Assembly: GCA_964596395.1 (NCBI GenBank) | Contig: CAZQSY010000003.1 | Span: 25,678-89,677, forward strand | Source: an uncultured Candidatus Saccharibacteria bacterium | Lineage (GTDB): Bacteria; Patescibacteriota; Minisyncoccia; Phycocordibacterales; UBA9973 | Length of the DNA stretch: 64,000 nucleotides | Reading direction: 5' to 3' | Shown here: positions 3,638-20,394 of the stretch, piece after piece | How positions within the stretch are numbered: the first letter of the stretch is position 1 | Layout of the letters: the number at the start of each line of letters is the position of its first letter | Translations under genes and position numbers: made by a program | The notes under the pieces: generated by a model | Told to the model about the DNA's origin: nothing | Databases searched by the model: none | The model's input: the letters and a program-made list of their open reading frames with translations, nothing else

Positions 3638-4662
3638 CTTGATTCCCGATTAGCACTTCTTTATATGATTCAAGGTCGTCTAAAATAACGCCGGCTCCGC
3701 GGGCCACCGCAGAAAGCGGGTCGTCTACCACGTGCACCGGAATTTTCAGAATGTTTTGCAAAAATTCGCCCATGCCCGAAATAAGCGCGCCACCGCCGGT
3801 CAGAGTGATGCCTCCCCTCATCACGTCTGAAAGAATTTCGGGCGGAGTCGTTTCTAAAACGTCTTTCACTCCGTCTACCAGTTCCCGAACCGAGGCGGAA
3901 AAGGCCTCGCGTATGTCCCCATCGGTCACCGAGACCTCCCGCGGCAGGCCCGTCAGAATGTCGCGCCCGCGCACTTCGGTCTCGGTATACTGCCCCGGCA
4001 AGACAGAGCCAATCGCGATTTTCACCGTCTCGGCTGTGGTCTCGCCGACCAGTAATTTGAATTCGTTCCGCATGTACGCGATGATGTCGTTATTGAATCT
4101 GTCTCCGGCGATTTTCAAACTTTTTGATTTCACGATCCCGCCTAGCGAAATCACCGCGATGTCGGTAGTCCCGCCGCCGAAATCCACAATCATCGAGCCG
4201 ACCGGGTCTTTGATGGGCAAGCGTATACCGATGGCCGCGGCCATCGGCTCTTCAACTAGGTACACTTCTCGCGCGCCGGCCGAACGGGTCGCGTCGTACA
4301 CGGCGCGCGTCTCGACATTGGTAGTGCCACACGGTACGCCGACTAAGACGCGGGGGCGGGCAAGTTTTTTAGAAATTTTGTCGGCCTTACTGATAAGATA
4401 CGAAAGCATTTCTTCGGTTACTTCAAAATCTGAAATCACGCCCTCAACCAGCGGGCGCACCGCGCGGATGTGCCCCGGGGTCCGGCCGAGCATTTCTTTG
4501 GCTTTTTCGCCGACGGCCAGTATCTGGTTTGTCTTGATGTTTACCGCCACCACCGAGGGCTCGTTAATCACGATGCCGTGCCCTTTCAAATACACCAGCG
4601 TATTCGAAGTACCCAGGTCTATGCCGATGTCGTTTGAAATTAATTTGTAAATTTTTTCAAGC
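3618..4662 (-). CDS. mreB: rod shape-determining protein MreB (actin-like ATPase)
   Basis: 'IGIDLGTSNTLVYLKGHGIVINEPSVVAV', 'DFGGGTTDIAVISLGGIV', 'LTGGGALISGMGEFL'. The track ORF begins at 4727, but the likely start is the internal Met of 'MLEKIYKLISNDIGIDLGT' near 4662. That leaves only a short gap to the upstream gene proS, which ends at 4675. Confidence 0.9.
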
Positions 4663-4674
4663 ATAAAAAACCCG

Positions 4675-5976
4675 TCACTTGGCGGTCGGACTACCAAGCA
4701 AATCGAGCAATTCTTCCAGAGAAACAATTTTGCCTTTCTCTTCGTTCCGTTTTTTCAGCTCCACACCCCCCTCTTTCATGCTCCGTAGGGAGATAACTGC
4801 CCTGTACGGCATGCCCAACAAATCGGCGTCGGCGAATTTTTCCCCGGCCGAAATTTCTTCCCGGTCGTCAAAAAGCGCCTCTACCCCCCTCGCCCGCAAA
4901 GCGCCATAGACGCGCTCGGCTTCTTTTTTCACCGCTTCGCTCCCAGAAAGCGAGAGAAGGTGCACTTTAAACGGAGCGATCGATTCGGGCCAGATGATAC
5001 CCTTGTCGTCAGATAAAACCTCAACCACCGTGCCCATCAGGCGTCCCAAGCCGATGCCGTAGCTTCCCATTATTACCAATTTCTCTTCCCCTTTCTCATC
5101 CCGATATTTAAGGTCAAAAGGCGCCGAGAATTTCGTCCCGAGAGAAAAGATATTCCCGACTTCGATTGCCTTGCGCTCCGCCAGTTTTTCCCGCGCCAGA
5201 CCCAAATCCGCAAGTACTTCGTCGTTTGATACTTCCTGGTTCACGGCGATGTTTTTTTCTTCGTCTATATATATGGTGTCTTCTCCGGCCGAGGTCACCG
5301 TCTGGAACTCGTGCGAGAATTTTGAAAAAGTTCCGCCCGAAGCAAAGGTCAGGTACGTCAAATGCCCGATGCCGGCGCGCTTGAAAATATTCACGTAAGC
5401 GCCTTTTATTTTTTCGTAGAAAGCGTTGTGCTCTGCCTCGTCTCTGCAAAAAGAATACAGCGCCTTCCAGTAAAACTCCCTGCCCCGCATCATGCCCGAC
5501 TTGCTCCTTACCTCATTTCTGAAAATATTTTTAAAATCGTACGGATAAATCGGCAGGTCTTTGTAAGAGCTCACGTACTGTTTCAATATGTTCGAGTAGG
5601 CCTCTTCGTTGGTAAAAGACAAACCGACTTCCCCGCCGTTTTTTAATTTTGCCTTAAACCAAACGTCCACCACTTCGTCGCTCCAGCGGTTAGTTTTTTC
5701 CCAGATTTCTTTGTTCTGAAGCACCGCCGTGCGCATTTCCGCGCCACCGACGGCATCCATCTCTTCGCGAATTATATTTTCAATTTTGTTTAAAACCCGC
5801 AAGCCGAGAGGCAGGTACGAATAAACCCCCGCCATTTCCTTGCTTATATATCCCGCGCGAATCAGAAGCTCTGCGTTTTTAGACGTCTCGTCGGCCGGGG
5901 CTTCTTTTCTGGTTTTGGTAAAAAGTTGAGATTGTCTCATGTCCCCCATACTAACCGAAAAAACCCCTTCGGTCAA
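4675..5976 (-). CDS. proS: prolyl-tRNA synthetase, bacterial type lacking the editing (INS) domain
   Basis: 'MRQSQLFTKTRKEAPADETSKNAELLIRAGYI' matches the bacterial ProRS N-terminus. Class II motifs are present, there is a C-terminal anticodon-binding domain, and the length is 433 aa. Confidence 0.9.
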   Translation of the reverse strand: MTEGVFSVSMGDMRQSQLFTKTRKEAPADETSKNAELLIRAGYISKEMAGVYSYLPLGLRVLNKIENIIREEMDAVGGAEMRTAVLQNKEIWEKTNRWSDEVVDVWFKAKLKNGGEVGLSFTNEEAYSNILKQYVSSYKDLPIYPYDFKNIFRNEVRSKSGMMRGREFYWKALYSFCRDEAEHNAFYEKIKGAYVNIFKRAGIGHLTYLTFASGGTFSKFSHEFQTVTSAGEDTIYIDEEKNIAVNQEVSNDEVLADLGLAREKLAERKAIEVGNIFSLGTKFSAPFDLKYRDEKGEEKLVIMGSYGIGLGRLMGTVVEVLSDDKGIIWPESIAPFKVHLLSLSGSEAVKKEAERVYGALRARGVEALFDDREEISAGEKFADADLLGMPYRAVISLRSMKEGGVELKKRNEEKGKIVSLEELLDLLGSPTAK

Positions 5977-5990
5977 AGATTAATTCCGTG

Positions 5991-6019
5991 TTGCAAAAAC
6001 AGTTTTCTTCTGCTAGAAT
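5991..6019 (+). promoter_or_regulatory. sigma70-like promoter with extended -10 (TTGCAA-17-TGCTAGAAT)
   Basis: ttgcaa at 5991-5996, 17-nt spacer, tgc-tagaat at 6011-6019. An ATG at 6027 sits about 7 nt after the -10 element, so the rpsB transcript may be leaderless. Confidence 0.45.
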
Positions 6020-6026
6020 GCCTCGC

Positions 6027-6767
6027 ATGCAAAAAACCGAAAACACCGGCGCCGGGGCGGCGGCTGACATCGAGAAAATGTTCGAAGTGGGCGCGCATTA
6101 CGGCTACACGAGAGGCAGAAGGCACCCTTCAATCTCTCCTTATATATACGCCACCAAGAAAAACGGGGACATAATTGACTTAGAGAAAACATCCGCCCTG
6201 CTTCAAAACGCGGCGGAGTTCGTAAAACACCTCGGCTCGCAGAACAAGATAATGCTCTTGGTAGGAGCGAAGCCGGAAGCGAGAGATACGATAAAAAACG
6301 CGGCCGAAAAGCTTTCTATGCCTTTCGTCGCTCTGCGCTGGATAGGCGGAACCATTTCGAACTTCGGAGAAATAAAAAAGAGGATCGCCGAACTGGAAAA
6401 ATACAACAAAGATGTCGCCGAGGGCAATCTGGAAAAGTACACCAAAAAAGAAAGAGTGGTACTGGCCAAGAAAATGGAGAAGCTTACAAAATACTACTCG
6501 GGACTGCTTTCGCTCAAGAAAACCCCAGACGCGCTTTTCGTAATTGACGCAAAAGCCGAAAAAATCGCCGTTACCGAAGCGAGAGACGCCGGCGTGCCGG
6601 TGGTGGCGCTTCTTAATTCTGATTCAGACATAAAGGCCGTCGACTGGCCCATCGTGGCAAACGACGCGAGCGTGCCTTCAATCAAACTTTTCGTAAACGC
6701 GATTGTGTCGGCTTACGAGGAAGGAAAGATGTCTATACCGGAGCCGAAAATAGAAACAAAAAAATAA
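6027..6767 (+). CDS. rpsB: 30S ribosomal protein S2
   Basis: 'VGAHYGYTRGRRHPSISPYIYATKKNGDIIDLEKT', 'IMLLVGAKPEA', 'ALRWIGGTISNF', 'VIDAKAEKIAVTEARDAGVPVVALLNSDSD'. The track start at 5988 lies inside the promoter. A start at 6027 (or 6078) is more likely. Confidence 0.85.
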   Translation: MQKTENTGAGAAADIEKMFEVGAHYGYTRGRRHPSISPYIYATKKNGDIIDLEKTSALLQNAAEFVKHLGSQNKIMLLVGAKPEARDTIKNAAEKLSMPFVALRWIGGTISNFGEIKKRIAELEKYNKDVAEGNLEKYTKKERVVLAKKMEKLTKYYSGLLSLKKTPDALFVIDAKAEKIAVTEARDAGVPVVALLNSDSDIKAVDWPIVANDASVPSIKLFVNAIVSAYEEGKMSIPEPKIETKK

Positions 6768-6768
6768 A

Positions 6769-7548
6769 ATGCCGGGAGCAGTAACCACCAACTTGATAAA
6801 GGACTTGCGGGACGCGACGGGCGTCTCGGTGATGCAATGCAAGAACGCACTCGAAGAAGCCGGGGGTGACATGGAAAAAGCGCTCTCTATTTTGAAACGG
6901 GTCAGCGCCGACATAGCGCTCAAAAAAGCAGGCCGCGATGCCAAGGATGGCAGGGTCTCGGTAAAAAGCGACGGCAAAAAGTCAGTACTGGTGGCGCTCC
7001 ACTGTGAGACGGATTTCGTGGCCAAGAACGAGGATTTTGTGAAGCTTCTTGCTTCCCTATCCGATATTGCCTTTGAAGAAGGGCCTGAAAAAATGAAAGA
7101 AAAAGCCGAAGACATGATAAACCCGGTGATTCAGAAAACCGGCGAGAAAATAGAACTCGGGGACGTGTACGAAGTGAAAGGAGAAATATTGGGAAGCTAT
7201 GTGCACAACGACAAATCGGCGGTTATCGTGTCTCTTTCGGGAGGCAGCGCGGAACTGGCCAAAGACATAGCCATGCACATCACCGCCATGAAGCCCGAAT
7301 TTTTCTCGCGCGAAGAAATCACCGAAGAAGCCCGAAAGGCGGCAAACCAGATGTTCTCGAAAGAAGTCGAGGAATCCGGCAAACCCGAAGACATAAAGAA
7401 AAAAATCCTGGAAGGCAAGGTAAGTTCTTACTTTAAGGAAAAGACCCTGCCCGACCAGGCATTCATAAAAGACCCCGATACGACGATAGAAAAACTTCTC
7501 TCGGACAACAAAGCGAAAGTGCGGGAGGTGAAACGTTATACTATATGA
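6769..7548 (+). CDS. tsf: elongation factor Ts
   Basis: 'LIKDLRDATGVSVMQCKNALEEAGGDMEKALSILKR' is the UBA-like N-terminal domain of EF-Ts. The gene sits in the conserved rpsB-tsf arrangement. Confidence 0.9.
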   Translation: MPGAVTTNLIKDLRDATGVSVMQCKNALEEAGGDMEKALSILKRVSADIALKKAGRDAKDGRVSVKSDGKKSVLVALHCETDFVAKNEDFVKLLASLSDIAFEEGPEKMKEKAEDMINPVIQKTGEKIELGDVYEVKGEILGSYVHNDKSAVIVSLSGGSAELAKDIAMHITAMKPEFFSREEITEEARKAANQMFSKEVEESGKPEDIKKKILEGKVSSYFKEKTLPDQAFIKDPDTTIEKLLSDNKAKVREVKRYTI

Positions 7549-7976
7549 GCATAATAATGGCATTACCCACACCCCTGTATTTTCTTCTAGCTTCGCTTTT
7601 GGGAATGGTTTTCATGGTCAGCCGAAAAATCTTCCAGCTTAAAAACGGAGAAGCCGAATACGCGACGAATGCGGACACGATGGGCTTTGACCTTGAAAAA
7701 ATAAGGCATTTCGTCTGGCGAGGCGTCAGAAATCTGGGATACATCACCCTCTTCCTGTCCCTCCGTTTATTCATGAAAACGTCAAACTTTTTGAAAGTGA
7801 AAGGCAAGATGCTCTTGCAGAAGATAGAAGACAGATTCATGCGGGATGAAGAAAAGCTCATGGGCGGAATAGTTAAAAACAAAGAGGTCTCAAAATACCT
7901 GCGGATGATTTCGGATTACCGCGAGAAAATCCGCCGAATGAAGCATATAATAAAAGAGGAGGAGGGTATAAAATAA
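7545..7976 (+). CDS. hypothetical small membrane protein, 2 predicted TM segments
   Basis: Its start codon overlaps the tsf stop in an ATGA arrangement. Hydrophobic segments LYFLLASLLGMVFMV and GYITLFLSLRLF are followed by a Lys/Glu-rich tail. Confidence 0.4.
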   Translation: MSIIMALPTPLYFLLASLLGMVFMVSRKIFQLKNGEAEYATNADTMGFDLEKIRHFVWRGVRNLGYITLFLSLRLFMKTSNFLKVKGKMLLQKIEDRFMRDEEKLMGGIVKNKEVSKYLRMISDYREKIRRMKHIIKEEEGIK

Positions 7977-8004
7977 CCAAGAAGTTAACTCAGTAATTAG
8001 TTTT

Positions 8005-8078
8005 GCCGGTGTAGCTCAGGTGGTTAGAGCGCCACTTTTGTAAAGTGGATGTCGAGGGTTCGAATCCTTCCACCGGCT
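8005..8078 (+). tRNA. tRNA-Thr (anticodon TGT)
   Basis: GCCGGTG/CACCGGC acceptor stem, D-arm GCTC-AGGTGGTTA-GAGC, anticodon stem CCACT/AGTGG with loop TTTGTAA, T-arm GAGGG-TTCGAAT-CCTTC. Total 74 nt, and the 3' CCA is not encoded. Confidence 0.85.
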
Positions 8079-8081
8079 CAG

Positions 8082-8159
8082 TTGGTACCTGCCTGCCGGC
8101 AGGCAGGGAACAACGCTTTCGTAAAGCGAAGGTCCTCGGTTCGAATCCGACGAGCCAAG
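8082..8159 (+). tRNA. aberrant tRNA-like sequence (possible tRNA-Thr, anticodon CGT) with the D-arm replaced by the 20-bp REP-like palindrome
   Basis: Canonical T-arm GGTTCGAATCC at 8138-8148. Anticodon hairpin ACGCT-TTCGTAA-AGCGA with one mismatch. Acceptor stem TTGGTAC/GAGCCAA is 6 of 7 paired including a G-U wobble. The D-arm position is occupied by CCTGCCTGCCGGCAGGCAGG (8088-8107), and ~6 extra nt precede the anticodon stem. This is either a non-canonical tRNA or a tRNA pseudogene disrupted by the repeat. Confidence 0.35.
8088..8107. repeat. REP-1 palindrome copy 1 (CCTGCCTGCCGGCAGGCAGG, perfect 10+10)
   Basis: Perfect 20-bp palindrome. Related copies lie at 19597, 22765 and 50064. Confidence 0.8.
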
Positions 8160-8452
8160 CTCCAGCAAAATCTATAAATAAAATTGAAACGTTCAACACC
8201 TTTCCACCTCCACAATCACCCTCAAAAAGTGATATGAGTAACGCCTACGAAAATGATTACAAAGAAATCGTTCCCATACAGACAGCTAGCGTTCCTATCG
8301 GCAACTATCTGGCGACGGTAGCGGCGGTGGCAGCGGCGATAGTTCTCAGGTTTTTTCTAATCAGAAAAATAGGGCTAAAAAGAAAAAGGCGCTAACTGCG
8401 TCACTACAATATAAAGAGTGAACATCTTTTTATTGCCCGCACACGTGCGAAC

Positions 8453-9559
8453 GTGCTAAAATTAACAGCACGAATGTGCAGGCAATTTTTCAGGGCACAA
8501 AATTTTTTGCTTGTTCTCCTTTTGTCGGGGGTCTGGTTTATCTTTGCGGGAACAAGTATCCGCTCTTCCGCGCAAGAGACAAGCACGGTCAGCACCGACA
8601 CCGCTGAAATAATTCCGCAGGACGAGACGCCCGCAAGCGCGGAAGAAAATCCTCCTCCAGATGAGACGAGTGCCGTAAGCGGCGATAATGCTGAACCAAT
8701 CCCGCAAAATGAAACACCTGTGACTGTGGAAGAAAATCTTTCCCCCTCTAATGAGACAAACACAACAACAAGTGGTGTTGGTACCGAACCAATCCCGCAA
8801 AATGAAACACCTGTGACTGTGGAAGAAACCGCCGTAGAGAATCCGGAGGAAACAATTTCCCCGACAACTCTTCCGCCAGAAGAAAACCCGATACCGGAAA
8901 CACCCGAAGAAGAAGCCGGCGCGGCTGATGTCCCGGGAGAACTGCCTCCCGAATCACTGCCTCCCGAATCAGACACAAACATTGTCCCGGCAGAAGAAAC
9001 AACAGAGACAGGCGCTCCCGCGGATACCGGGGGTGAAGAAACAGCCGCACCGGCAACCGAAGATCTCGAAGGAATCTTCACCGAGGAAGAACCAGAAGCG
9101 GCGCTTCCTGAAGAACTGGCGGAAGAGGTCTTACCCGAAGCACTTGTCGAGGAGCCCCCTTTCATAGCTCCTCTCGTACAGAGATTAAAAGATAGAAGAT
9201 TAGACAGGGAAATAAAAATCGACAGCGGCGCTTCTCATAAATGCGAAGTTATTGATTTTAATCTTGATGTCTCGAACCAAGACCTGGCAGTAGCCGAAAT
9301 GATACTGGACGGCGATCGGGAAAATTTTTCAAAAGAAGAACTGGAAATCGGCAACTTGCCGCCCGGCATAGATATGACGTTTTTGGGAAGCGGAGGATAC
9401 AAGTACTCGCCGACTAAAGACGAAAATTCTCTATATCTGCAGGTAACCAAAGAAGAAAACACGCTCGAGGGAAATTTTAATCTGTCAATAATATACACCG
9501 GAACAAAGGAAAACAGCGACTCGATAACTTTGTGTCAAATAAATGTGATAAATCTTTGA
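8453..9559 (+). CDS. secreted acidic low-complexity protein with an internal tandem repeat and a C-terminal globular domain
   Basis: N-terminal hydrophobic signal/anchor (FLLVLLLSGVWFIFAGTSIRSSAQE). A long E/P/T-rich region contains the duplicated peptide EPIPQNETPVTVEE. The non-repetitive C-terminal ~130 aa favours this strand over the overlapping antisense ORF. Confidence 0.55.
   Translation: MLKLTARMCRQFFRAQNFLLVLLLSGVWFIFAGTSIRSSAQETSTVSTDTAEIIPQDETPASAEENPPPDETSAVSGDNAEPIPQNETPVTVEENLSPSNETNTTTSGVGTEPIPQNETPVTVEETAVENPEETISPTTLPPEENPIPETPEEEAGAADVPGELPPESLPPESDTNIVPAEETTETGAPADTGGEETAAPATEDLEGIFTEEEPEAALPEELAEEVLPEALVEEPPFIAPLVQRLKDRRLDREIKIDSGASHKCEVIDFNLDVSNQDLAVAEMILDGDRENFSKEELEIGNLPPGIDMTFLGSGGYKYSPTKDENSLYLQVTKEENTLEGNFNLSIIYTGTKENSDSITLCQINVINL
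8693..8735 (+). repeat. 43-bp perfect direct repeat, copy 1 (GAACCAATCCCGCAAAATGAAACACCTGTGACTGTGGAAGAAA)
   Basis: Identical to 8786-8828. It encodes the duplicated peptide EPIPQNETPVTVEE in the acidic protein. Confidence 0.9.
8786..8828 (+). repeat. 43-bp perfect direct repeat, copy 2
   Basis: Identical to 8693-8735. Confidence 0.9.
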
Positions 9560-9565
9560 GTAAAA

Positions 9566-11344
9566 ATGAAAGGTAAAAAAAAATTATTTCTGAAAATATT
9601 TCTACTCGTGATTTCTTTTTCCTGCCTTTTCCTGGTTCCGAAAAAATCCGAAGCAGTCATAGCGACCAGCGGCTCGGCACAGCTCAAGACCATAACCACT
9701 GGCGACACGCTGGTTTTTGATTCTTGGACGCCAACGGCAAACATACTGACAATAGTAATGATAGCTCAAAGAGACGAATCTATTTCCGCCACTATTTCCG
9801 GCAACAACTTGACTTGGACGCAAATCCGCGACAAGGATTGCGGACGCGCGCAGTGCGGCGTGGTGGTATGGAAAGGCACCGGGGCAAGTCCGTCTACCGG
9901 CACAACGACGGTTACCATAACCGGCAACTTAAAGCCCGTGTCCGGCATTATCCAGCAATTCAGCGGTGTTGACGCGACCACGCCGGTCGAGGCAGATAAT
10001 GTTGATTCGCATGGCTCGACCGACGACGACGACATGCTGGCCTCGGTGACAACAGTAACCTCGGGCGCTTGGGCGGTAGCCTTCGGCACAAGCCGGGGTA
10101 CAAACGCATTCACTACTCCCGGCGGAGAAAACACAATCAGCATAAACCAAATAGCCGGGTCTGGCGGTGATTTGATAAGGGCGCATATGTGGTATGAGGG
10201 GCCAGTATCCACACCCGCTTCAACCCAGCTCGGCGCATTAAACGACCTCTCGGGAGCATCCGACTGGGCTGAGGTCGTCATTTCGATAAAGCCCTCCCGT
10301 TTATTCACACAATCCGCGTACCGTTTTTTCGAAAACATCGATTCAGCCACTGCCACTACCCCGATGGTGGCGCAAGATACAGCGGCCACGCTCTCGGCCG
10401 CAGGAGACGCTTTTCGCCTTAAAATGCTCTTGCACTATGACGGTCCTGATTTTCCAGCCAATGGAGAAACCTGGAAACTTCAATTCGCCGAAAAATCCGG
10501 CACCTGTGACACGGGTTTTTCGGGAGAATCATATTCAGATGTTACTGCCGCCACCGTAATAGCTTACAAAGACAATTCCACTCCGGCTGACGGCAACAAC
10601 ACGGGTGCCGACGGCGACGACCCGACGCATAGCGGCCACACCATAGTGAACGAAAATTACGAGGAATCAAACAACTTCGCAAACGCCGGTTCATACATCC
10701 CCGACGGCGCGGACGCGAAATGGGATTTTTCGCTTAAAGACAACGGTGCCACCGCAAGCACGGCCTACTGTTTTCGTGTATTAACGTCGGGCGGCTCGCA
10801 GCTTAATACTTATTCGGTGATACCGCAAATCACGACTGCTTCTTCCAGCGCGCTTACTTTCAGCATTTCCGACAACTCGGTCGGCTTCGGCACGCTCTCT
10901 ACCAGTGCCGCGCGTTACGCCACAGGGGATTTGAGCGGAAGCGCATCTGAAACACCTGCCCACACAATTATTGCGTCCACTACCGCTTCGTCCGGATATG
11001 TAATTACCGTAAACGGCTCCACACTCGCCTGCTCCGCCTGCGGGGGCGCGACTGTAAGCGCAATCGGCGGCACAGCTACCGCGTCTTCGGCGGGTACGGA
11101 ACAATTTGGCATAAACTTAGTTTACTCCGGCGGCTCGGGAACGGCATCTTCCCCTTACAACGACCAAACATCCGCTTATACTTTCGCTTTTGACACGGCA
11201 AATTTTCCCGACCAAATAGCGTCATCTTCGGGCACATCTACCGATACCACTTATTCGGTGTATTATCTTGGAAACATATCCCCCACCACCGATGCCGGGA
11301 GTTACAGCACCACGCTTACTTATATAATCACAGCCACTTTTTAA
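9566..11344 (+). CDS. large secreted T/S/G/A-rich surface protein with a WxL-like C-terminal motif
   Basis: Signal peptide MKGKKKLFLKIFLLVISFSCLFLVPKKSEA. 592 aa of beta-rich, low-charge sequence. The C-terminus '...SYSTTLTYIITATF' is shared with the next gene ('...DYTDTLTFIATANF'). Confidence 0.5.
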   Translation: MKGKKKLFLKIFLLVISFSCLFLVPKKSEAVIATSGSAQLKTITTGDTLVFDSWTPTANILTIVMIAQRDESISATISGNNLTWTQIRDKDCGRAQCGVVVWKGTGASPSTGTTTVTITGNLKPVSGIIQQFSGVDATTPVEADNVDSHGSTDDDDMLASVTTVTSGAWAVAFGTSRGTNAFTTPGGENTISINQIAGSGGDLIRAHMWYEGPVSTPASTQLGALNDLSGASDWAEVVISIKPSRLFTQSAYRFFENIDSATATTPMVAQDTAATLSAAGDAFRLKMLLHYDGPDFPANGETWKLQFAEKSGTCDTGFSGESYSDVTAATVIAYKDNSTPADGNNTGADGDDPTHSGHTIVNENYEESNNFANAGSYIPDGADAKWDFSLKDNGATASTAYCFRVLTSGGSQLNTYSVIPQITTASSSALTFSISDNSVGFGTLSTSAARYATGDLSGSASETPAHTIIASTTASSGYVITVNGSTLACSACGGATVSAIGGTATASSAGTEQFGINLVYSGGSGTASSPYNDQTSAYTFAFDTANFPDQIASSSGTSTDTTYSVYYLGNISPTTDAGSYSTTLTYIITATF

Positions 11345-11481
11345 GTACTCAAAGTTATCCACAGCCCCGCAGACAAAAATACGTTTACGCTGTTATATAA
11401 TGATATATGTTGAAGCTCGCAAGGGTGCTCATAATCAAAAGTCGCTACTTTACTAATTTATAATTTTTATGTTGCTTTTTT

Positions 11482-12657
11482 ATGAATAAAAAATCGTTTA
11501 AGTTTTGGAAGTCGTTCGTCGGCACCTGGCTCATAGCAGGTCTTTTCCTACTGACCATCGCAGGGCTCTTACCAAATAAAGCGCAAGCCGCGACACTCCT
11601 CAACATGAGCGACACTCTAAGCACTCAAAAAGCGAGCACGGTGGCGAACCACACAATCGTCTTCCGCACTCCTACCGGCGCCGCTGAAAACACCGACACC
11701 ATAACACTCACCTTCTCGGCCGACTTTACCATGAACTCGGTCGCCTTCGGCGACTTTGACCTCGCGCACTCGGCCGGTAGCCAGTCCGACTGTGCCGCCC
11801 CAACATACACAAACGAAGAAACTCTGGCAGCTAGCGCCTCGGACACCGAATGGGGTGCGGCTCTTTCCGGCCAAGTCATAACCTTCACCGCCCCGACCGA
11901 CGGCGTAGGTGCGGCAGCAATCGCGACGAATGCCTGCGTACAGATACAAATCGGTACCAATGCCACCGCGGGCGCTACCGGCGACACCCAAATCACGAAC
12001 GGCGCCGCCGATGACGATGACACGGTAGCTATCGCCGGAACCTTCGGCGATTCGGGCACTATCACGGTAGATATAATTGATGACGACCAGGTAAGCGTCT
12101 CAGCTACCGTTAACCAATCCGTGACTTTCGATATAGACGTCGGTACGGCCGGGAATGAAAACACCGACACTCCTTACGATGTGGCTTTGGGAACAATTAC
12201 CGTAACAGATACGCGCGTCTCAGGAGCGACGGACTCGGTAAACAGAATAATGATGGACTTGGATACAAACGCCACCAGCGGCGCCACAGTAACAGTTAGA
12301 AATACCAACGGCGCCAACGGTCTTGTCTCTACGGCAGTGGGAGCCGACAACATAGGCAGTGCTGACGGCGCGATAGCCGACGGCACCGAAAATTATGGTC
12401 TGTGTGTTATATCCGTAACGCAAACCACCGGAACCCTTTCAAAAGCTTCTCCTTATAACTCTGGTTCCTGCGCGGCAGACACTGAAACAAACGATATACA
12501 AGGATTAACCACTACCGGAGAAAATATTGTGACTTCTACGGCTCCGCTTGCCGGAGGCCGGGCACAAGTAGCCGTAAACGCGGCAATCAGCGGAGTCACC
12601 GTGGCCCACTCGGATTATACTGATACGCTCACCTTTATCGCTACGGCGAACTTTTAA
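11482..12657 (+). CDS. secreted surface protein, paralogous C-terminal motif (WxL-like)
   Basis: Signal peptide ...LLTIAGLLPNKAQA. 'TITVTDTRVSGATDSV' resembles the v.DtRg..GWsL region of WxL domains. The C-terminus 'YTDTLTFIATANF' resembles the terminal 'LtWtL' WxL motif, with W replaced by F/Y. Confidence 0.5.
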   Translation: MNKKSFKFWKSFVGTWLIAGLFLLTIAGLLPNKAQAATLLNMSDTLSTQKASTVANHTIVFRTPTGAAENTDTITLTFSADFTMNSVAFGDFDLAHSAGSQSDCAAPTYTNEETLAASASDTEWGAALSGQVITFTAPTDGVGAAAIATNACVQIQIGTNATAGATGDTQITNGAADDDDTVAIAGTFGDSGTITVDIIDDDQVSVSATVNQSVTFDIDVGTAGNENTDTPYDVALGTITVTDTRVSGATDSVNRIMMDLDTNATSGATVTVRNTNGANGLVSTAVGADNIGSADGAIADGTENYGLCVISVTQTTGTLSKASPYNSGSCAADTETNDIQGLTTTGENIVTSTAPLAGGRAQVAVNAAISGVTVAHSDYTDTLTFIATANF

Positions 12658-12723
12658 CCGAAAAAGAATAATTAGAACCGGCAGAAGCTCCCGAAGCTCG
12701 ACAATATCGAGAAAGAACACATT

Positions 12724-13731
12724 ATGCGAAAACTTTTTTTCATAATATTCACCCTGGCGGCACTTTTTACGGCGGGTTCTGTATCGGCGCTTACCGTATC
12801 TCCCGTACGTATAGAAATCGCGGGCGACCCGGGAACGACCCTTTCGGGTGCAATAGAGCTTTTTAACGAACAAAATAACCAGGGAGAAAAAGTTTTCTAT
12901 ACTTCTTTTGAAAATTTTGAACCATCTGGCGACACGGGAGCTCCGCGCTTCATTGGGGCAAAAGACGGTCTGGCTACCTGGATAAAATCAGAGGGTAAAG
13001 TCGTTCTCGATTCGGGTGTACGAGTCACCGTCCCTTATTCTATCGATATACCCAAAGAAGCAGAGCCGGGCGGATATTTCGCGGCAATCTTTTTCGGCAC
13101 GCAAGACCCGGGGTCCCAAGGAGAGGGCCAGGTTTCGGTGGGCGGCAAAATCGGGGTACTCATGATGCTTCGGGTTACCGGCGACATAGAAGAAAATGCC
13201 GGACTTTTGGATTTTTCAGCCAAAGAAAAAAAGAGGTTTTTCACTTCCCTGCCCGTCACTTTTACCTATAGAATAAACAACGCGGGCGGAGACAGAATTA
13301 TGCCGAGCGGGGAAATAAAAATCAAAAACACTTTTCAATTTAAAACCGCCGAGCTTCCGGCCAATAAGAACTCGGGAAACATTTTACCGGGAAGCTCCAG
13401 AAAATACGAAGTAACCTGGGGAGAAGAAACGGCAGGGACCTCTGCCGAAGAAAACGCGGAAATTTCAAAGATAAAAAAATATTGGCAGGATTTCTTAGGG
13501 AAAACAAAAAACCAGCTGAAGGCGTTTCATTTTGGATGGTATAGGGCAGAACTAGACCTATCTTGGAGCGCCGAGAAACAAACCGCCAATGCTTCTTATA
13601 GTTTCTTCATTATACCTTGGCAGATTCTCTTGTTGGCCGGTATCGTTTTGCTCATACTGCTCAATCTGGGTGGAAGAATAATAAGAAGATACAACCGATG
13701 GATTATTGCTAAGGCAAGCGCGCAAAGATGA
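12724..13731 (+). CDS. cell-surface protein with signal peptide, two beta-sandwich-like domains and a C-terminal TM anchor (DUF916/DUF3324-like architecture)
   Basis: Signal peptide ...AGSVSALTVSPVRIEI..., where 'VSPV' resembles the start of DUF916. A C-terminal TM segment IIPWQILLLAGIVLLILLNLGG is followed by the basic tail RIIRRYNRW. Same strand as, and directly after, the two WxL-like genes. Confidence 0.4.
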   Translation: MRKLFFIIFTLAALFTAGSVSALTVSPVRIEIAGDPGTTLSGAIELFNEQNNQGEKVFYTSFENFEPSGDTGAPRFIGAKDGLATWIKSEGKVVLDSGVRVTVPYSIDIPKEAEPGGYFAAIFFGTQDPGSQGEGQVSVGGKIGVLMMLRVTGDIEENAGLLDFSAKEKKRFFTSLPVTFTYRINNAGGDRIMPSGEIKIKNTFQFKTAELPANKNSGNILPGSSRKYEVTWGEETAGTSAEENAEISKIKKYWQDFLGKTKNQLKAFHFGWYRAELDLSWSAEKQTANASYSFFIIPWQILLLAGIVLLILLNLGGRIIRRYNRWIIAKASAQR

Positions 13732-14250
13732 ATGAAGCCGAGAAAGCTCAAGCAAAACATATCGGCGGCAATTCTATGCTTAAGTTTGGGATTCTTCGCC
13801 TTTTCTCTCGTTAGCCGAGCGGATATAGACGTGCAAGTAACCGCTACTGTAGAGGGTTGCGGGGATGGCGCTATCGGGGCAGGAGAAGAATGTGATGGTG
13901 CAAACCTAAATGGCGCTTCATGTGTTTCGCAGGGATTTGACGGTGGCACCCTCTCCTGCGGAACTTTCTGTCTCTTTAATACCACCTCCTGTACTCTGGG
14001 CGGAGGAGGCGGAGGCGGGGGTATTCGCACGCCTATAAGAGAAACCGATACTGAGTCGCCAAAATGCGGCATCGCCGATTTTAACTGCGACACCAGGGTG
14101 GATATTCTCGACTTCAGCATTCTGCTCTATTATGAAAGTTCCGGCGCTGGAAGCACATTATATGAAGAACACGACCTTTCCGGCGACCAGAAAATAAATA
14201 TGGTCGATATATCTATAATGTTCTATTACTGGACCAACACCGAAGTATAA
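13732..14250 (+). CDS. secreted protein with a Cys-rich repeat (myxococcal CGDG...EECD type), a poly-Gly linker and a C-terminal dockerin domain
   Basis: Signal peptide. 'CGDGAIGAGEECDGANLNGASC' is the Cys-rich repeat. GGGGGGGG is the linker. Two 12-residue Ca-binding loops match the dockerin consensus D-x-[ND]-x-D-x-x-[VI]-[ND]-x-x-D: DFNCDTRVDILD (+FSILLYY) and DLSGDQKINMVD (+ISIMFYY). Confidence 0.6.
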   Translation: MKPRKLKQNISAAILCLSLGFFAFSLVSRADIDVQVTATVEGCGDGAIGAGEECDGANLNGASCVSQGFDGGTLSCGTFCLFNTTSCTLGGGGGGGGIRTPIRETDTESPKCGIADFNCDTRVDILDFSILLYYESSGAGSTLYEEHDLSGDQKINMVDISIMFYYWTNTEV

Positions 14251-14259
14251 AATTTTTAA

Positions 14260-15159
14260 ATGGTAAAAGACAAACACGCATTAAAATATAAAAAATGGCC
14301 AGCGGTGATTCTGATTCTGGCGGTTTTTGCGGTTTTTGGAAAGACGTTTGCCGAAAGTCCGTCCATCAACCAAATTTACCTAGAGGGTCCGGTTTCAGTT
14401 ATGGCTCCAGGGTCAGAATTTGCGGTAAGCGTTTACGCCCAAACAAAAAGCCCGATAAATGCCTTTGAGGTTGAACTCGAATATCCGAGAGAAAATCTAC
14501 GCTTTTTAAATTACGACAACGCCGGCTCGATTGCCGATATCTGGCAAACGGAACCATCCCCCGCGAAAGACGGAAAAATCAAAATGACGGGCGGAATCAT
14601 CGGAGCTTTTCGGGGAGAGGAAGGACTTGTAGCAAAATTACACTTCAGAGCCGTCAAAAGCGGCCTAGCTCGATTCTCCGTTGTTAAAAAAAATTTCTAC
14701 TTGGCTGACGGTAGGGGTACGGAGGTAGAAGCTGCGACAAATAATTTCTCTGTGAACATCGCGGGGGGAGCAAGTGTACCGTTCTTATTCCTTCCTCCGC
14801 CTCCAAAAGACAACACTCCGCCCAATCTTTATTTGGAAGTAGTCAAGAATCCGCCCGGCAGTCCCCCCTTGGTAACATTTTACGCCGCCGATAAAGAATC
14901 GGGCATAAAAAACACGGAAATGCGTTTCAAAAATTGGCTCAACTTCACGGAATGGCAAAAAGTCAAAAGTCCCGCCCTGTACCCTTCCGGGGCATGGTAT
15001 CTTGAAATCAAGGCCACAAACGGAGCCGGAAAAGAAACGACAGAAAACTTCTTATCTATTGAGAATCTGACTTTAAAAATAGCCAAGGTATTCTTCGCCT
15101 CCACAATCTTGGCCGTCTTGGTGAATGCGTTGTATAATAAATTTAGGCGGAAAAAATAA
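14260..15159 (+). CDS. membrane-anchored cohesin-domain protein
   Basis: N-terminal TM/signal (WPAVILILAVFAVFG). A cohesin-like segment '...EFAVSVYAQTKSPINAFEVELEYPRENLRFLNYDNAGSIADIWQ...DGKIKMTGG...GLVAKLHFRAVKSGLARFSV' matches the cohesin pattern (source strands, then 'v.l.yDp..L..v....G.l', then 'g.i.f.g', then 'tl..i.Fk.'). C-terminal TM IAKVFFASTILAVLVNALY. Confidence 0.55.
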   Translation: MVKDKHALKYKKWPAVILILAVFAVFGKTFAESPSINQIYLEGPVSVMAPGSEFAVSVYAQTKSPINAFEVELEYPRENLRFLNYDNAGSIADIWQTEPSPAKDGKIKMTGGIIGAFRGEEGLVAKLHFRAVKSGLARFSVVKKNFYLADGRGTEVEAATNNFSVNIAGGASVPFLFLPPPPKDNTPPNLYLEVVKNPPGSPPLVTFYAADKESGIKNTEMRFKNWLNFTEWQKVKSPALYPSGAWYLEIKATNGAGKETTENFLSIENLTLKIAKVFFASTILAVLVNALYNKFRRKK

Positions 15160-15163
15160 ACAC

Positions 15164-17173
15164 ATGAAACGCTTCACTTTTTTTATTGTTTCTCTTGTTT
15201 TTCTGGCTCTGCCGGGGATAAGCAAAGCGGCAACTTTGTTGCTTTCTCCGCAAGTCGGCAATTTTTCTGTCGGCTCCACTTTCAATGTCTCAATACTTTT
15301 AGATACCAAGGGTCAATCGGTAAACGCCCTGGAAGTTTCGCTTTCCTTTCCCCCCGACATGCTCCAAGTTATATCGCCGTCAACCGGCCGCTCCATAATA
15401 GAGGTCTGGACGGCTAGTCCGAAATTTGACAACAAAAGCGGCAAAATAGAACTCAGGGGCGGCATCCCGGGGGGCATAAGTGCTTCGAGCGCCCTCGTTT
15501 CTACCGTAACTTTCAGGGTTAAGTCCGTAGGAGAAAGCGCGATTAAGTTCTTAGATAACTCAAAGGTGCTACTCAACGACGGCCTAGGCACCAATGTTTT
15601 GAATCAGACGGTAAATGGGGTCTACGGTTTTAATCTTCCGCCTCCAGCCGGTCCAACTGTGGTTTCAGACACTAATCCCGACCAGGCAACATGGTATTCA
15701 AGCAAAACGGTCTCTTTAAAATTCATAAGCCAAGGTGGGGGCACGGAAGACGGATACAGTTACATACTCTCAGACAATCCCACCACTATCCCAGACGACA
15801 TAAGCGAAGGTAAGAAAAATTCAGTTTCCTACACGAACCTCACCGACGGTACGCATTATTTCCACGTCAAAGCCATGCGGGCGGGAAGCTGGGGAGGAAC
15901 GACTCATTTCGCGATTAAAATTGATTCTACTCCGCCGGCTGATTTCAAAATTGACATCGCCCCTTCAGCCCGCACCTCCACCCGCCAGCCGATTATCCAA
16001 TTCTTGACGACCGATACCCTGTCGGGAATCGAGAGTTATGATTTAAAAATAGTACCCTTGTCCGCCTATGGAAACAAAACCAGCGCCGGCGAATTTTTCA
16101 TTGAAGCAGAAAGCCCTTATTTCCCGCAAACCCTATCCGTCGGCAATTACGACGTGATTGTCCGCGCTTATGACAAATCCGGCAATTTCAGGGAGGTGAC
16201 AAAACGCCTGCAGGTGGTAGCTCCCGTTTTCTCTTTTATCTCCGCCGACGGAATAAAAATCTGGAGCATTTTAATCCCGTGGATTTATGTTTGGATTTTC
16301 CTTTTCTTGTGTATCATCGCCTTGGCGTACCTGGCTCACCGCACTAGACGCTGGCGGCACACGGTGCACTCCGCGCAAACCGAAGGCAAATTGCCGGAAG
16401 ACGTGCAAAGAGAACTCGAAGAGCTCAAGAAATACAGGGAAAAATACGGCACAGCTGTTTTGGTGCTGGCTTTGATTTTATCTTTGACACTCATCTTCCC
16501 CGGCCTGACCGAGGCCCAGACCCCCCAAATCGCTCCGCCACTCATCCAAAGCATTTCTAAAAATATTTCCAACGAAGAAATATTTTACGTCGGCGGAAAA
16601 ACGGATTTTGCCGACGAGAAGGTAATCATCTATCTGCAAAACCTGCAAACCGGCGAAACCTTCAGCCAATACATCGAAAGCGACAGTAAAGGCGACTGGT
16701 TCTATCGGCATGGCGGCTTTCTGTCTCCAGGAAACTATCTTTTGTGGACGCAGGGAAAAATAGGCGAAGAACTCTCCCCTCCCAGCCCTCAAGCCAAAAT
16801 GACGGTGAGCAGGACAGCGGTAGAATTCGGTAGCGGTCGACTTAGCTACGAGATGATTTACCTACTGATAGTGATTTTGCTCTCGGTGTGCCTGTTGGGG
16901 TTGGGTATTTATATAATTTTCCATCTCTATCACGGAAAGAAAAAGCACGCTGAACTAAAAAAGGACATCATGGAAGCAGAAGAATCTATAAAGCGGGGTT
17001 TTGCGGTGCTAAAAAGAGACATAGAAGCCGAACTCAGACTCATAAACAAAATGAAGTTATCATCCGCTATGTCTGCTGAAGAGAAGATTAGAGAAAACCA
17101 GCTTTTGTCAGACCTGGAAAACATCCAGCAAAAAATCGGCCAAGAAATCTGGGAAATTAGCGAAGAGGCCTAG
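15164..17173 (+). CDS. multi-domain membrane protein: signal peptide, cohesin domain, Ig/FN3-like domains, 3 TM segments, C-terminal coiled coil
   Basis: Likely start is MKRF at 15164. Cohesin-like 'FNVSILLDTKGQSVNALEVSLSFPPDMLQVISPSTGRSIIEVWTASPKFDNKSGKIELRGG...ALVSTVTFRVKSVGESAIKF'. 'DGTHYFHVKA' marks the Ig-like domains. TM helices lie at approximately residues 385-410, 450-470 and 555-580. C-terminal EELKKYREKYG and KDIMEAEESIKRGFAVLKRDIEAEL are coiled coil. Confidence 0.55.
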   Translation: MKRFTFFIVSLVFLALPGISKAATLLLSPQVGNFSVGSTFNVSILLDTKGQSVNALEVSLSFPPDMLQVISPSTGRSIIEVWTASPKFDNKSGKIELRGGIPGGISASSALVSTVTFRVKSVGESAIKFLDNSKVLLNDGLGTNVLNQTVNGVYGFNLPPPAGPTVVSDTNPDQATWYSSKTVSLKFISQGGGTEDGYSYILSDNPTTIPDDISEGKKNSVSYTNLTDGTHYFHVKAMRAGSWGGTTHFAIKIDSTPPADFKIDIAPSARTSTRQPIIQFLTTDTLSGIESYDLKIVPLSAYGNKTSAGEFFIEAESPYFPQTLSVGNYDVIVRAYDKSGNFREVTKRLQVVAPVFSFISADGIKIWSILIPWIYVWIFLFLCIIALAYLAHRTRRWRHTVHSAQTEGKLPEDVQRELEELKKYREKYGTAVLVLALILSLTLIFPGLTEAQTPQIAPPLIQSISKNISNEEIFYVGGKTDFADEKVIIYLQNLQTGETFSQYIESDSKGDWFYRHGGFLSPGNYLLWTQGKIGEELSPPSPQAKMTVSRTAVEFGSGRLSYEMIYLLIVILLSVCLLGLGIYIIFHLYHGKKKHAELKKDIMEAEESIKRGFAVLKRDIEAELRLINKMKLSSAMSAEEKIRENQLLSDLENIQQKIGQEIWEISEEA

Positions 17174-17874
17174 GGTTTTGAAACGCTTTCGCTTCCCTTC
17201 TCCTCTGTCGCGCCTTCTTCGAGCTTAAAGGATTTCTTTATCCGTGAATCAAGCTCTTCAATATCGCGGAAGCCGGTCAAAACATCGTCCTCGATAACAA
17301 GCGCCGGCAATTCCGTATCCTTGATTTTGTAAATCTGGAGCATCGAGCGCACCGCCGAAAGGTCTATATTGAAATCAAAAGAATAAACGCGCAGGTCGCT
17401 ATATTTCTCGCGCAAGGCAGAGAGCACCAAACCTTCTTTCTCGCAGTCAGAGCACCTGTTCTTATCGGTGTAAAAATAAAGTATAAAAGCCGTTTTCTTG
17501 CCGCAACGCTCCGAAATTCTCTTGGAAAGCAGGTAATCTTTTATCTCTAACAGAGAGTAATATTTCTTTAAATACATAACTTCATCAGTCATACCAAGAT
17601 TTTTTTCACTCCATTCCAGTTTCTGCCCGAGCTCCGAGAGCTCCTGGGACAAAACAGAGTGGGAAATATTCTTACAGGAAAGCTCCGACAAGAGCGAATA
17701 CTGCGCCTCAGAGGAAAGAATGTCTATGGCGATATTGTCTTGTATCGATTTGAGCTGCTTCACCTTTCTGTCGCTGAGATAGCCGCTCAGGTAACTAGCC
17801 GATAAAAAAATACCGGCGGTAAACAAAAAAACTATTAAATATTTTTTCCAGTCAATGTTGTGTTCTGGGTGCAT
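17170..17874 (-). CDS. membrane-anchored thioredoxin-fold-like protein with a CxxC motif (hypothetical)
   Basis: N-terminal TM (LIVFLFTAGIFLSASYL). 'TAFILYFYTDKNRCSDCEK' is a CxxC motif in a beta-alpha context reminiscent of thioredoxin/DsbA. The assignment is weak. Confidence 0.3.
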   Translation of the reverse strand: MHPEHNIDWKKYLIVFLFTAGIFLSASYLSGYLSDRKVKQLKSIQDNIAIDILSSEAQYSLLSELSCKNISHSVLSQELSELGQKLEWSEKNLGMTDEVMYLKKYYSLLEIKDYLLSKRISERCGKKTAFILYFYTDKNRCSDCEKEGLVLSALREKYSDLRVYSFDFNIDLSAVRSMLQIYKIKDTELPALVIEDDVLTGFRDIEELDSRIKKSFKLEEGATEEKGSESVSKP

Positions 17875-17901
17875 GTTTTTTTCGTTTAAAACCGCCCTGG
17901 G

Positions 17902-19596: not shown

Positions 19597-19616
19597 ACCT
19601 GCCTGCCGACAGGCAG
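19597..19616. repeat. REP-1 palindrome copy 2 (CCTGCCTGCCGACAGGCAGG, 1 substitution)
   Basis: Intergenic, about 100 bp upstream of the RAYT-like transposase gene. Confidence 0.75.
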
Positions 19617-19663
19617 GGACCCTTCACGGTACATATTATACCACGACTTCGTTTTCTTTAGTT

Positions 19664-19690
19664 AAAATGAGCAAGGACTCCCCTTGCTCA
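19664..19690 (+). repeat. 27-bp hairpin repeat, left copy (AAAATGAGCAAGGACTCCCCTTGCTCA; 9-bp stem, 5-nt loop)
   Basis: Identical to 20394-20420, in direct orientation, flanking the Y1 transposase gene. Confidence 0.85.
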
Positions 19691-19719: not shown

Positions 19720-20394
19720 ATGTATAGAAAAACCCCATTTGCAGAAAATGAGCATTATCACATCTATGACAGAGGAGTGGAAAAGCGCAAAATTTTTCTT
19801 TCAAAAAAAGATTATCAGCGCTTTGTGGCCCTCCTGTACATTATGAATCAGGACGAGTCGTTCAGAATGGACAATTTTTTGCGCGAAGAAGAAAACAAGC
19901 TAGGCAATATATTCAACGAAGAAAGGAGCAAAACCCTGGTCGCCGTTTTAGGTTATTGCCTAATGCCAAACCATTTTCATTTGATTCTATATGAAAAGAG
20001 GGAAGGGGGTATAAGTAAATTTATGGCCAAACTTTTAACCGCTTACTCAATGTACTTCAACACAAAATATGAAAGAAGCGGCCCGCTCTTTACCCGACCT
20101 TTCAGGTCAGAATATATAGATAACGAACCGCAATTTATGTATATATTCTCGTATGTGCACTTGAATCCTCTTTCAGTCTTAGACAGAAAGTGGAAAGAAA
20201 ATGGCATAAAAAACAGAGACGAAGCGGAGAAATTTCTGGAAAATTATGATTACTCCAGTTATCAGGACTTCCTTAGTGCAGAAAGAGTAGAATCAAAAAT
20301 CGTTGACTTTTCTCTTGTGCCGAAATATATAAAAAACATGAGAATGGATTTAGACACGCAAGAAAAAAACCTGAGCATAAATGACGAGAGGTGA
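19720..20394 (+). CDS. HuH Y1 transposase of the IS200-like / REP-associated tyrosine transposase (RAYT, PF01797-like) family
   Basis: 'YHIYDRGVEKRKIFLSKKDYQRFVALL' matches the 'YHVtqRG..r..IF.ddeD...fl.lL' pattern. 'GYCLMPNHFHLIL' is the HuH motif. 'FMYIFSYVHLNPL' places the catalytic Tyr in the Y-x-x-x-NP context. At 224 aa it is longer than classic IS200 TnpA. Confidence 0.7.
   Translation: MYRKTPFAENEHYHIYDRGVEKRKIFLSKKDYQRFVALLYIMNQDESFRMDNFLREEENKLGNIFNEERSKTLVAVLGYCLMPNHFHLILYEKREGGISKFMAKLLTAYSMYFNTKYERSGPLFTRPFRSEYIDNEPQFMYIFSYVHLNPLSVLDRKWKENGIKNRDEAEKFLENYDYSSYQDFLSAERVESKIVDFSLVPKYIKNMRMDLDTQEKNLSINDER

Follow-up and report, generated by a model that had tools for sequence, protein, structure and literature searches.

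Structure of the tRNA-Thr locus

The window, by which we mean the whole 64,000-nucleotide stretch of Candidatus Saccharibacteria DNA analysed here, carries two tRNA-Thr-derived elements in direct succession. The first is an intact tRNA-Thr(UGU) gene; the second, which we call the relic (8076–8164), joins a tRNA-like T-arm and anticodon hairpin to a short palindrome, P. Read from 8005, the order is intact tRNA-Thr(TGT), CAGTTGGTA, CCTGCCTGCCGGCAGGCAGG and GAACAACGCTTTCGTAAAGCGAAGGTCCTCGGTTCGAATCCGACGAGCCAAGCTCCA. Upstream lie proS (minus strand), rpsB, tsf and a 143-aa open reading frame (ORF). Our analysis indicates that the relic is very probably a 5'-truncated tRNA-Thr(UGU) pseudogene that has received a REP-like palindrome and is fused to its replacement, and not a non-canonical tRNA.

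The intact gene ends at 8078 in the Rfam match and at 8079 in the ARAGORN call (span 8005–8079); the one other tRNA that ARAGORN reports over the 64 kb is a distant tRNA-Ser. The gene belongs to an allele class termed B below, with the acceptor stem GCCGGTG/CACCGGC and the anticodon stem CCACT/AGTGG, and shares 93% identity with its syntenic counterparts in L008, L024 and L040. Its D-loop, AGGTGGTTA, is unusual and unlike that of all 54 relatives in the alignment.

The two elements meet in a tetranucleotide, GCTC, where the 3' terminus of the intact tRNA (..GGC-T-C) overlaps positions 10–13 of the relic, the 5' strand of its D-stem; it constitutes a breakpoint microhomology. The relic lacks tRNA positions 1–9, comprising the acceptor 5' strand, U8 and A9. 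It begins with GCTCAGTTGGTA (8076–8087), the D-stem 5' strand and D-loop, identical in the tRNA-Thr of relatives. P follows as a clean 20-nt addition, with neither target duplication nor loss, and its removal restores colinearity with the orthologues. The D-stem 3' strand now reads GAAC, formerly GAGC (G24A, derived), which breaks one pair, and the halves GCTC and GAAC are kept apart by the 8-nt loop and the 20-nt palindrome. The anticodon arm (8113–8129; ACGCT TTCGTAA AGCGA) presents CGT at 8120–8122 in a 7-nt loop that keeps U33 and A37, and equals that of the orthologues save for T34C. Its A27.A43 mismatch is ancestral, since functional orthologues carry it as well. The variable loop has 5 nt (AGGTC). 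In the T-arm (8135–8151) the loop TTCGAAT is intact, the motif GGTTCGAATCC lies at 8138–8148, and the stem consists of 4 bp plus a derived C49.C65 mismatch (G65C). Beyond it follow 2 extra nt, a 3' acceptor strand GCCAAGC, T and CCA (8162–8164). L001, a Logan assembly made separately, agrees letter for letter with window positions 3769–8105 and ends within the palindrome; because this independent assembly reproduces the junction of tRNA and relic, the junction is no artefact of the metagenome-assembled genome.

The relic is not recognized as a tRNA. At the Rfam gathering threshold (29 bits for RF00005) the second tRNA-like stretch is absent, and ARAGORN makes no call. A permissive search of 301 nt (7950–8250) returned a partial RF00005 match on 8102–8157 with 14.2 bits (E = 3.4); this is the covariance-model check proposed in an earlier annotation of the window from its letters (the sequence-only reading), and it does not score the region as a normal tRNA. 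ARAGORN accepts the relic as tRNA-Thr(cgt) only after three repairs: deletion of P, addition of a complementary 5' strand with TA, and removal of a CGA duplication. In the minimum free energy fold of 8076–8170, the palindrome and an extended anticodon hairpin dominate and no cloverleaf forms. There is no 7-bp acceptor stem, as positions 1–9 are gone and the stretch proposed as a 5' strand is ancestrally the D-loop. The pairs G1-C72 and C2-G71 are identity elements for threonyl-tRNA synthetase in E. coli; both are kept in 54/54 relatives, and the relic is without positions 1 and 2.

Table 1. Features of the tRNA-Thr locus and of P-bearing regions in the window.
Feature	Position	Strand	Basis or context
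Intact tRNA-Thr(UGU), class B allele	8005–8078	+	ARAGORN; Rfam RF00005, 68.8 bits
Junction GCTC, microhomology	8076–8079	+	Sequence versus alignment with relatives
Class A relic, D-stem 5' strand GCTC and D-loop AGTTGGTA	8076–8087	+	Matches relatives exactly
Palindrome P, CCTGCCTGCCGGCAGGCAGG, 20 nt, perfect	8088–8107	.	Insertion between relic A21 and G22
Remainder of relic, D-stem 3' strand to CCA	8108–8164	+	Alignment to L006, L009, L021, L064
~9-kb lineage-specific insert, seven ORFs	8165–17173	+	tblastn synteny, ORFs, Pfam
Second P copy, 1 mismatch	19598–19617	.	Intergenic, 102 nt upstream of ORF 19720–20394
RAYT-like Y1 (IS200-like) transposase ORF	19720–20394		PF01797, 34.6 bits, above cut-off
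Longer compound P variant	22765–22805	.	In frame inside dnaG (21629–23488, minus strand), primase catalytic core
Third P copy, 1 mismatch	50063–50082	.	In ORF 50007–53060 (minus strand), read as LPAGRQV

Parentage of the relic

The Tsf protein of the window shares at most ~73% identity with any protein-database entry, the best matches being Candidatus Paceibacterota/Nomurabacteria. When GTDB species genomes were searched with it, 80 loci were returned, none closer than 71%. ARAGORN was run on 60 of these relative loci (L002–L061). Exactly one tRNA, tRNA-Thr(tgt), lies ~450 nt past tsf in 52 of them, as in the window, and none was called in the other 8; a second tRNA occurs at 0/60. This comparison of the same locus in relatives, also put forward in the sequence-only reading, points to UGU parentage, as follows.

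Alignment of 54 syntenic tRNA-Thr genes with the window copies shows two allele classes that alternate at the same locus among relatives. Class B, marked by GCGCCACTTTTGTAAAGTGGATGTCGAGGG, contains the intact tRNA of the window, and class A, marked by GCAACGCTTTTGTAAAGCGAAGGTCCTCGG, contains the relic. Without P, the relic is identical to the tRNA-Thr(UGU) of L006, L009, L021 and L064 at 60/66 positions (91%), compared with 73% identity to its intact neighbour. Position 34 is T in 54/54 relatives, so the CGT of the relic is a derived T-to-C change, and most simply would be one of a few decay substitutions. Relative to class A, the relic carries G24A, T34C and G65C; its 3' acceptor strand is scrambled, and 2 nt have been gained there.

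These results revise the sequence-only reading in several respects. Its account of an intact tRNA-Thr(TGT) directly before the tRNA-like stretch, of an anticodon hairpin presenting CGT in a 7-nt loop, and of a perfect palindrome with an 8-bp stem and a 4-nt loop stands. The element, placed there at 8081–8163, runs from 8076 to 8164. The T-arm, called textbook there, has its motif at 8138–8148, and the C.C mismatch in its stem is derived. The D-arm was said to be replaced by the palindrome; its 5' stem and loop (GCTC AGTTGGTA) in fact persist at 8076–8087, and the AGTTGGT that had been taken for an acceptor strand aligns with the D-loop of relatives. One mismatch had been assigned to every other stem, which is partly right: A27.A43 is ancestral, the T-stem C.C is derived, and there is no 5' acceptor strand. 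Lastly, the proposal that a REP copy pseudogenised a tRNA-Thr(CGU) gene was correct about the pseudogene and the inserted REP-like palindrome and mistaken about the parent, a tRNA-Thr(UGU) (60/66, T34); the palindrome is not the sole lesion, given the loss of positions 1–9 and the fusion, and not necessarily the cause.

Other rearrangements are seen at this locus. The syntenic tRNA-Thr occupies the same position on the opposite strand in eight relatives (L015, L017, L020, L023, L026, L045, L055 and L057), which suggests local inversions of the tRNA. An inverted copy of the T-arm and acceptor 3' portion (GGCACGAGGATTCGAA) lies ~40 nt 3' of tRNA-Thr, past a terminator-like hairpin, in L030 (3958), L033 (3872) and L050 (2163). 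T-loop-like motifs 3' of tRNA-Thr in L002, L012, L034 and L064 were on inspection not tRNA-like.

Fusion of two alleles at the edge of a 9-kb insert

In a tblastn search with the ORFs of relatives, homologues of the window ORFs 17170–17874 (minus strand) and 17902–19149 (minus strand, a GT2 glycosyltransferase) abut tRNA-Thr in many relatives; this conserved pair stands directly 3' of it in L003, L009, L011, L016, L020, L024, L026 and others. Because the tRNA-Thr of many relatives directly precedes homologues of 17170–19149, the segment 8165–17173 is an insert, and the relic forms its left edge. Pfam matches in the insert are scarce (a dockerin domain in 13732–14250, weak Ig-like matches in 15125–17173), ORF 8453–9559 contains three repeats of 87–93 nt, and the ORFs of the insert resemble genes for variable surface proteins. 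In blastn-short comparisons with relatives, the spacer upstream of the tRNA and the 300 nt 3' of the relic gave chance matches only. Further fragments of either tRNA were not found elsewhere within the window, and the alignment shows that the intact tRNA-Thr is no hybrid of class A and class B alleles.

We propose that one of the two tRNA-Thr alleles would have arrived with foreign DNA, either as the 9-kb insert with a flanking tRNA or as an upstream segment with the class B tRNA. Acquisition is preferred over local duplication because the copies are 73% identical and the allele classes are alternatives at one locus. The incoming allele would have been joined to the resident locus at the D-stem through an illegitimate, microhomology-mediated junction, giving two copies of which one is complete; a tRNA-targeting nuclease like those in relatives may have cut the D-stem. 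P, as a mobile REP-like palindrome, would have entered the copy whose disruption did no harm. The relic is probably co-transcribed as a 3' trailer of the intact tRNA and then discarded. We infer the order of these events, since no intermediate state is seen among the relatives.

Several observations weigh against this scenario. The 3' acceptor strand of the relic strays further from class A than the remainder does, and the true parent allele is not among the sampled relatives. Intermediates, such as an intact tandem pair or a relic free of P, were not seen among relatives, the closest of which has ~73% Tsf identity. Under pure decay, a change such as T34C at the wobble position is about a 1-in-10 coincidence. 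No integrase was found in the 9-kb insert with Pfam, and neither a GIY-YIG gene nor a remnant of one was found in the window by tblastn or with a profile of 12 module ORFs of the type described below; the best profile score there has E = 0.79 and lies away from the relic.

Distribution and insertion sites of P

P is a perfect 20-mer with an 8-bp stem and a 4-nt loop, and its RNA fold has a free energy of -13.9 kcal/mol. The window contains four copies in 64 kb, of which one is intergenic, one lies in the relic and two lie inside ORFs; 0 copies such as those at 19598 and 50063, with one mismatch, would be expected by chance. When aligned with solved DnaG structures, the in-frame variant in dnaG is an insertion of ~13–16 residues. 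The copy at 50063 is within the C-terminal PD-(D/E)XK domain of a UvrD-like helicase-nuclease, where the encoded LPAGRQV immediately precedes a CxxC motif. This ORF ends in a stop codon that overlaps the start codon, ATG, of a patatin-like gene. We counted 12 occurrences of the octamer CCTGCCTG in the window against ~1 expected, among them isolated half-sites outside any palindrome at 25946, 28176, 33597 and 35437.

Beyond the window, the exact 20-mer is present in at least 120 metagenome contigs (80 of them among the matches listed) and in 35 stretches of IMG/VR contigs, so that more than 150 unrelated contigs share it. We analysed 155 P loci, metagenomic and viral, whose GC content ranges from 36 to 66%. 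A logo of the flanks of 165 copies shows no conserved target motif and no GTAG foot; T is depleted at position -1 and no other bias appears. Sixty percent of copies lie inside open frames of at least 100 codons, versus 87% of random sites (outside: 40% versus 13%). P is polymorphic between genomes, because the proS-rpsB spacer of L064 contains an exact copy, directly before TTGCAA, and the orthologous spacer of the window has none. Insertion at the tips of existing hairpins was considered and found weakly supported, with stems of at least 5 bp flanking 9.8% of copies versus 4.2% of controls. We did not find the exact 20-mer in the literature searched, nor relevant literature there on GIY-YIG, tRNA, Patescibacteria and palindromes.

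P in broken tRNA copies and a GIY-YIG module

P is found near tRNA genes more often than expected: 8 of 169 copies lie at most 150 nt from an ARAGORN tRNA, against 1.7 expected. At tRNA-holding loci, 9 of 27 copies sit in sequence that, once P is removed, duplicates 12 nt or more of the tRNA in question; among random positions the count is 62 of 4546. A loose regular-expression detector for D-arms around P did no better than its control (11% versus 8%) and was not used. In partial copies of tRNA-Asn (L233), tRNA-Val (L160), tRNA-Arg (L175) and tRNA-Leu (L180), P stands at the boundary of the D-loop and the 3' D-stem, between positions 21 and 22, the same boundary as in the relic, whose junctions read GGTA-P-GAAC. 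L154 has P twice, 2 nt deeper into the D-stem than this boundary. Other sites are 10/11 (L125), the D-loop of a tRNA-Ser copy (L131), the anticodon loop (L200), the T-stem/T-loop junction (L116) and the start of a tRNA 3' fragment (L133). In L226, P occupies the variable loop of a phage tRNA-Met that is intact in all other respects, and the ARAGORN call persists. The broken copies with P represent nine or more tRNA species (Thr, Asn, Ser, Val, Arg, Leu, Ala, Lys and Met), and the same D-arm position recurs among them. The tRNA-Ser 3' fragment of L133 (7302–7400) also holds a second GC palindrome (CCTGCCCGCC...GGCAGG), which splits the T-loop.

Five of these loci (L125, L154, L175, L180 and L233) share one order, in which a partial 5' tRNA copy with P is followed by a GIY-YIG ORF and then by a complete tRNA. 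In a variant, L131, the ORF comes just before the tRNA fragment. The ORFs encode 80–88 aa with a GIY-YIG domain (PF01541, E = 1e-15 to 1e-16); none of the NCBIfam models matches them, and Rfam finds no described RNA families in the regions of fragment plus palindrome. A scan of viral contigs for a degenerate D-arm joined to a P-like junction returned L233 and two chance matches in coding sequence. In L233 (823–1464, IMG/VR), the tRNA-Asn(GTT) behind the module contains a group I intron (Rfam 86 bits, 1182–1416), and the partial copy before the module has no intron as far as the anticodon loop.

Related structures occur at the orthologous tRNA-Thr itself. In L006 (3700–4200), GCCGCCTTAG (positions 1–10) is followed by two GC hairpins, CTCAG and a GIY-YIG ORF; the 5' piece and hairpins are tandemly repeated after the ORF, and an intact tRNA-Thr comes next, so that the insertion lies at 10/11. 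In L016 and L064, tRNA-Thr positions 1–17 precede a CCCGCCAGGGGCGG hairpin, positions 22–30, ~45 nt and the intact tRNA, with the break at 17/18. The D-stem site 10/11 is thus the insertion breakpoint in both L006 and L125, and the window break falls at 10–13.

The link between the 20-mer, the tRNA D-arm and the small GIY-YIG genes is statistically supported as a pattern, and any mechanism behind it is putative. It could reflect targeting, or insertions that survive only in dispensable tRNA copies. Tentatively, and with more reserve than confidence, we suggest that P may be an ultra-short mobile element with a preference for tRNA D-arms and loops, part of a selfish module that combines a partial tRNA, a GIY-YIG gene and an intact tRNA. 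Small GIY-YIG genes among tRNAs have precedent, as free-standing GIY-YIG homing endonucleases such as SegB of phage T4 occur in tRNA gene clusters. The likeness lies in small GIY-YIG ORFs between tRNAs with a disrupted or duplicated tRNA alongside (L006, L125, L154, L175, L180, L233). The ORFs here differ in having 80–88 aa and a bare GIY-YIG domain and in following a palindrome-bearing partial tRNA, and the window has none.

The relic could then be a direct product of such an element: the D-stem of the resident tRNA would have been cut, a replacement tRNA copied in by repair, and P would mark or immunise the copy. The recurrent module order in the five loci and the L131 variant, the GIY-YIG insertion at 10/11 of the orthologous tRNA-Thr in L006 beside the window break at 10–13, the placement of P at 21/22 across five tRNA species, and the divergence of the intact D-loop from 54/54 relatives are all consistent with this. 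We nevertheless regard it as a possible but rather unlikely origin, as no GIY-YIG gene or remnant was found in the window, the nuclease specificity is putative, and ~90% of P copies are not near tRNAs. The geometry also differs, since in the modules P lies in a 5' fragment that precedes the intact tRNA, and in the window it lies in a 3' piece that follows it.

Relation to known palindrome families

A second candidate partner of P is the RAYT-like ORF of the window (Table 1). It contains the motifs NHFHL and YVHLNP and scores 39 bits with the NCBIfam model REP_Tyr_transpos, whose cut-off is 80. The ORF is flanked by two identical copies of a 23-nt hairpin, TGAGCAAGGACTCCCCTTGCTCA (19668–19690 and 20398–20420), which is unlike P; P stands on one side only. 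A homologue in L014 has 74% identity; those in L092 and L166 each have flanking hairpins of their own, and the contig of L096 ends shortly past the ORF. The RAYT-like and GIY-YIG proteins are both putative candidates for the enzymes that move P.

As in the REP/REPIN systems of Proteobacteria with their RAYTs, P is a short, GC-rich, multicopy palindrome enriched outside long open frames, and the window holds a Y1_Tnp/RAYT-like gene with a copy 102 nt upstream. P differs in being a perfect 20-mer that lacks both doublets and a conserved GTAG foot, in its identity across contigs of 36–66% GC, and in its intragenic copies; moreover, the RAYT-like gene is bordered by another hairpin and scores under the NCBIfam cut-off. 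Rickettsia palindromic elements (RPEs), reportedly described by Ogata et al. in 2000, are said to be 100–150 bp long and restricted to one genus. They resemble P as palindromic selfish DNA tolerated in frame in protein genes (here dnaG and the helicase-nuclease gene) and also in RNA genes, and differ from it in length and range, P being 20 bp and widespread. Mobile GC clusters are known from yeast and fungal mitochondrial genomes. These clusters share with P that they are very short GC-rich palindromes in AT-richer DNA, beside or within genes, and coexist with GIY-YIG homing endonuclease genes; P differs in being bacterial and phage-borne, conserved as an exact 20-mer, and found preferentially in tRNA D-arm copies. 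Palindromic repeats have been described in Fusarium mitochondria (PMC7218506).

Other explanations for the relic

The second copy might once have been a working tRNA-Thr(CGU), formed by tandem duplication of tRNA-Thr(UGU) and T34C before it broke. The sole change in the anticodon arm falls on position 34 and still yields a threonine anticodon, for which a chance hit would have a ~5–10% likelihood given ~3–6 substitutions per 66 nt. We think such a past improbable: neither a tandem pair nor a CGU gene occurs at the locus in any relative, the copies are 73% identical and their classes are alternatives at the same locus in relatives, and the remaining anticodon arm is identical to that of UGU orthologues.

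Less probable still, in our view, is an origin as an att-site duplicate, in which the 9-kb insert would be a tyrosine-integrase island that integrated into tRNA-Thr and left the relic behind. Partial tRNA copies of att type beside genomic islands, and tRNA remnants or partial duplicates at recombination hot spots, are said to have been described by Williams in 2002, and the likeness is plain: the relic is a partial copy beside an intact tRNA, exactly between that gene and a lineage-specific insert, and the tRNA locus has been targeted repeatedly in relatives. One of these, L060, has att-type repeats (3752–4050), two decaying tandem copies of the tRNA-Thr 3' half (anticodon loop to 3' end) with similar ~70-nt spacers, which look like stacked att remnants. 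The window fragment differs, however, in lacking its 5' part instead of forming a 3' repeat, in lying on the tRNA side of the insert and not on the far side, and in representing a different allele (73% identity) and not a copy of the 3' part of the intact gene. Nor was an integrase or recombinase found in the insert with Pfam; no matching tRNA fragment occurs at its far end or elsewhere in the window, and the intact tRNA is not a hybrid of both alleles.

That the relic is a functional, highly non-canonical tRNA-Thr(CGU), with a palindromic D-arm hairpin and an AGTTGGT/GCCAAGCT acceptor stem, is scarcely credible: the T-loop is canonical and intact, as is the 7-nt anticodon loop with its U33 and A37, TTGG (8082–8085) is able to pair with CCAA (8155–8158), and the region is more stable than shuffles (z = -3.5), though this stability is due to the palindrome; against these stand the score of 14.2 bits and the silence of ARAGORN, the origin of the proposed 5' strand in the ancestral D-loop, a best 7-bp pairing that starts with U1-A72/U2-A71 and includes one A.A mismatch and one G.U pair, the T-stem C.C mismatch with 2 extra nt between T-stem and acceptor strand, and the lack of an orthologue in ~60 relatives. 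The resemblance to tRNA-Sec drawn in the sequence-only reading fails with it, as it extends to the notion of a long D-stem closed by a 4-nt loop and to nothing else; the long stem of the relic is an insertion and not a D-stem, the anticodon is not UCA, an 8- or 9-bp acceptor stem and a long variable arm are absent, and the permissive Rfam search gave no match to the tRNA-Sec family in the relic region.

Implications for tRNA genes and short mobile elements

The truncated and replaced pseudogene remains our preferred reading, and the locus is properly annotated as a tRNA-Thr(UGU) pseudogene fragment, neither a tRNA-Thr(CGU) nor a structural oddity. Being a pseudogene fragment, it therefore has no bearing on the decoding of ACG. 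The relic itself is ordinary; the palindrome family is the interesting part. If P is indeed a mobile element of the kind suggested above, it would be an undescribed one, hosted by uncultured bacteria, including Patescibacteria, and by their phages. The relic, with its break at 10–13 and P at 21/22, would then be the fossil of an attack on tRNA-Thr, and the odd D-loop of the surviving tRNA a resistant allele. If, further, targeting and not survivorship accounts for the pattern, it would represent a new way for selfish DNA to exploit tRNA genes and would contribute to the turnover of tRNA alleles in streamlined genomes; it also offers a test case for the action of GIY-YIG or RAYT-like enzymes on very short hairpins.

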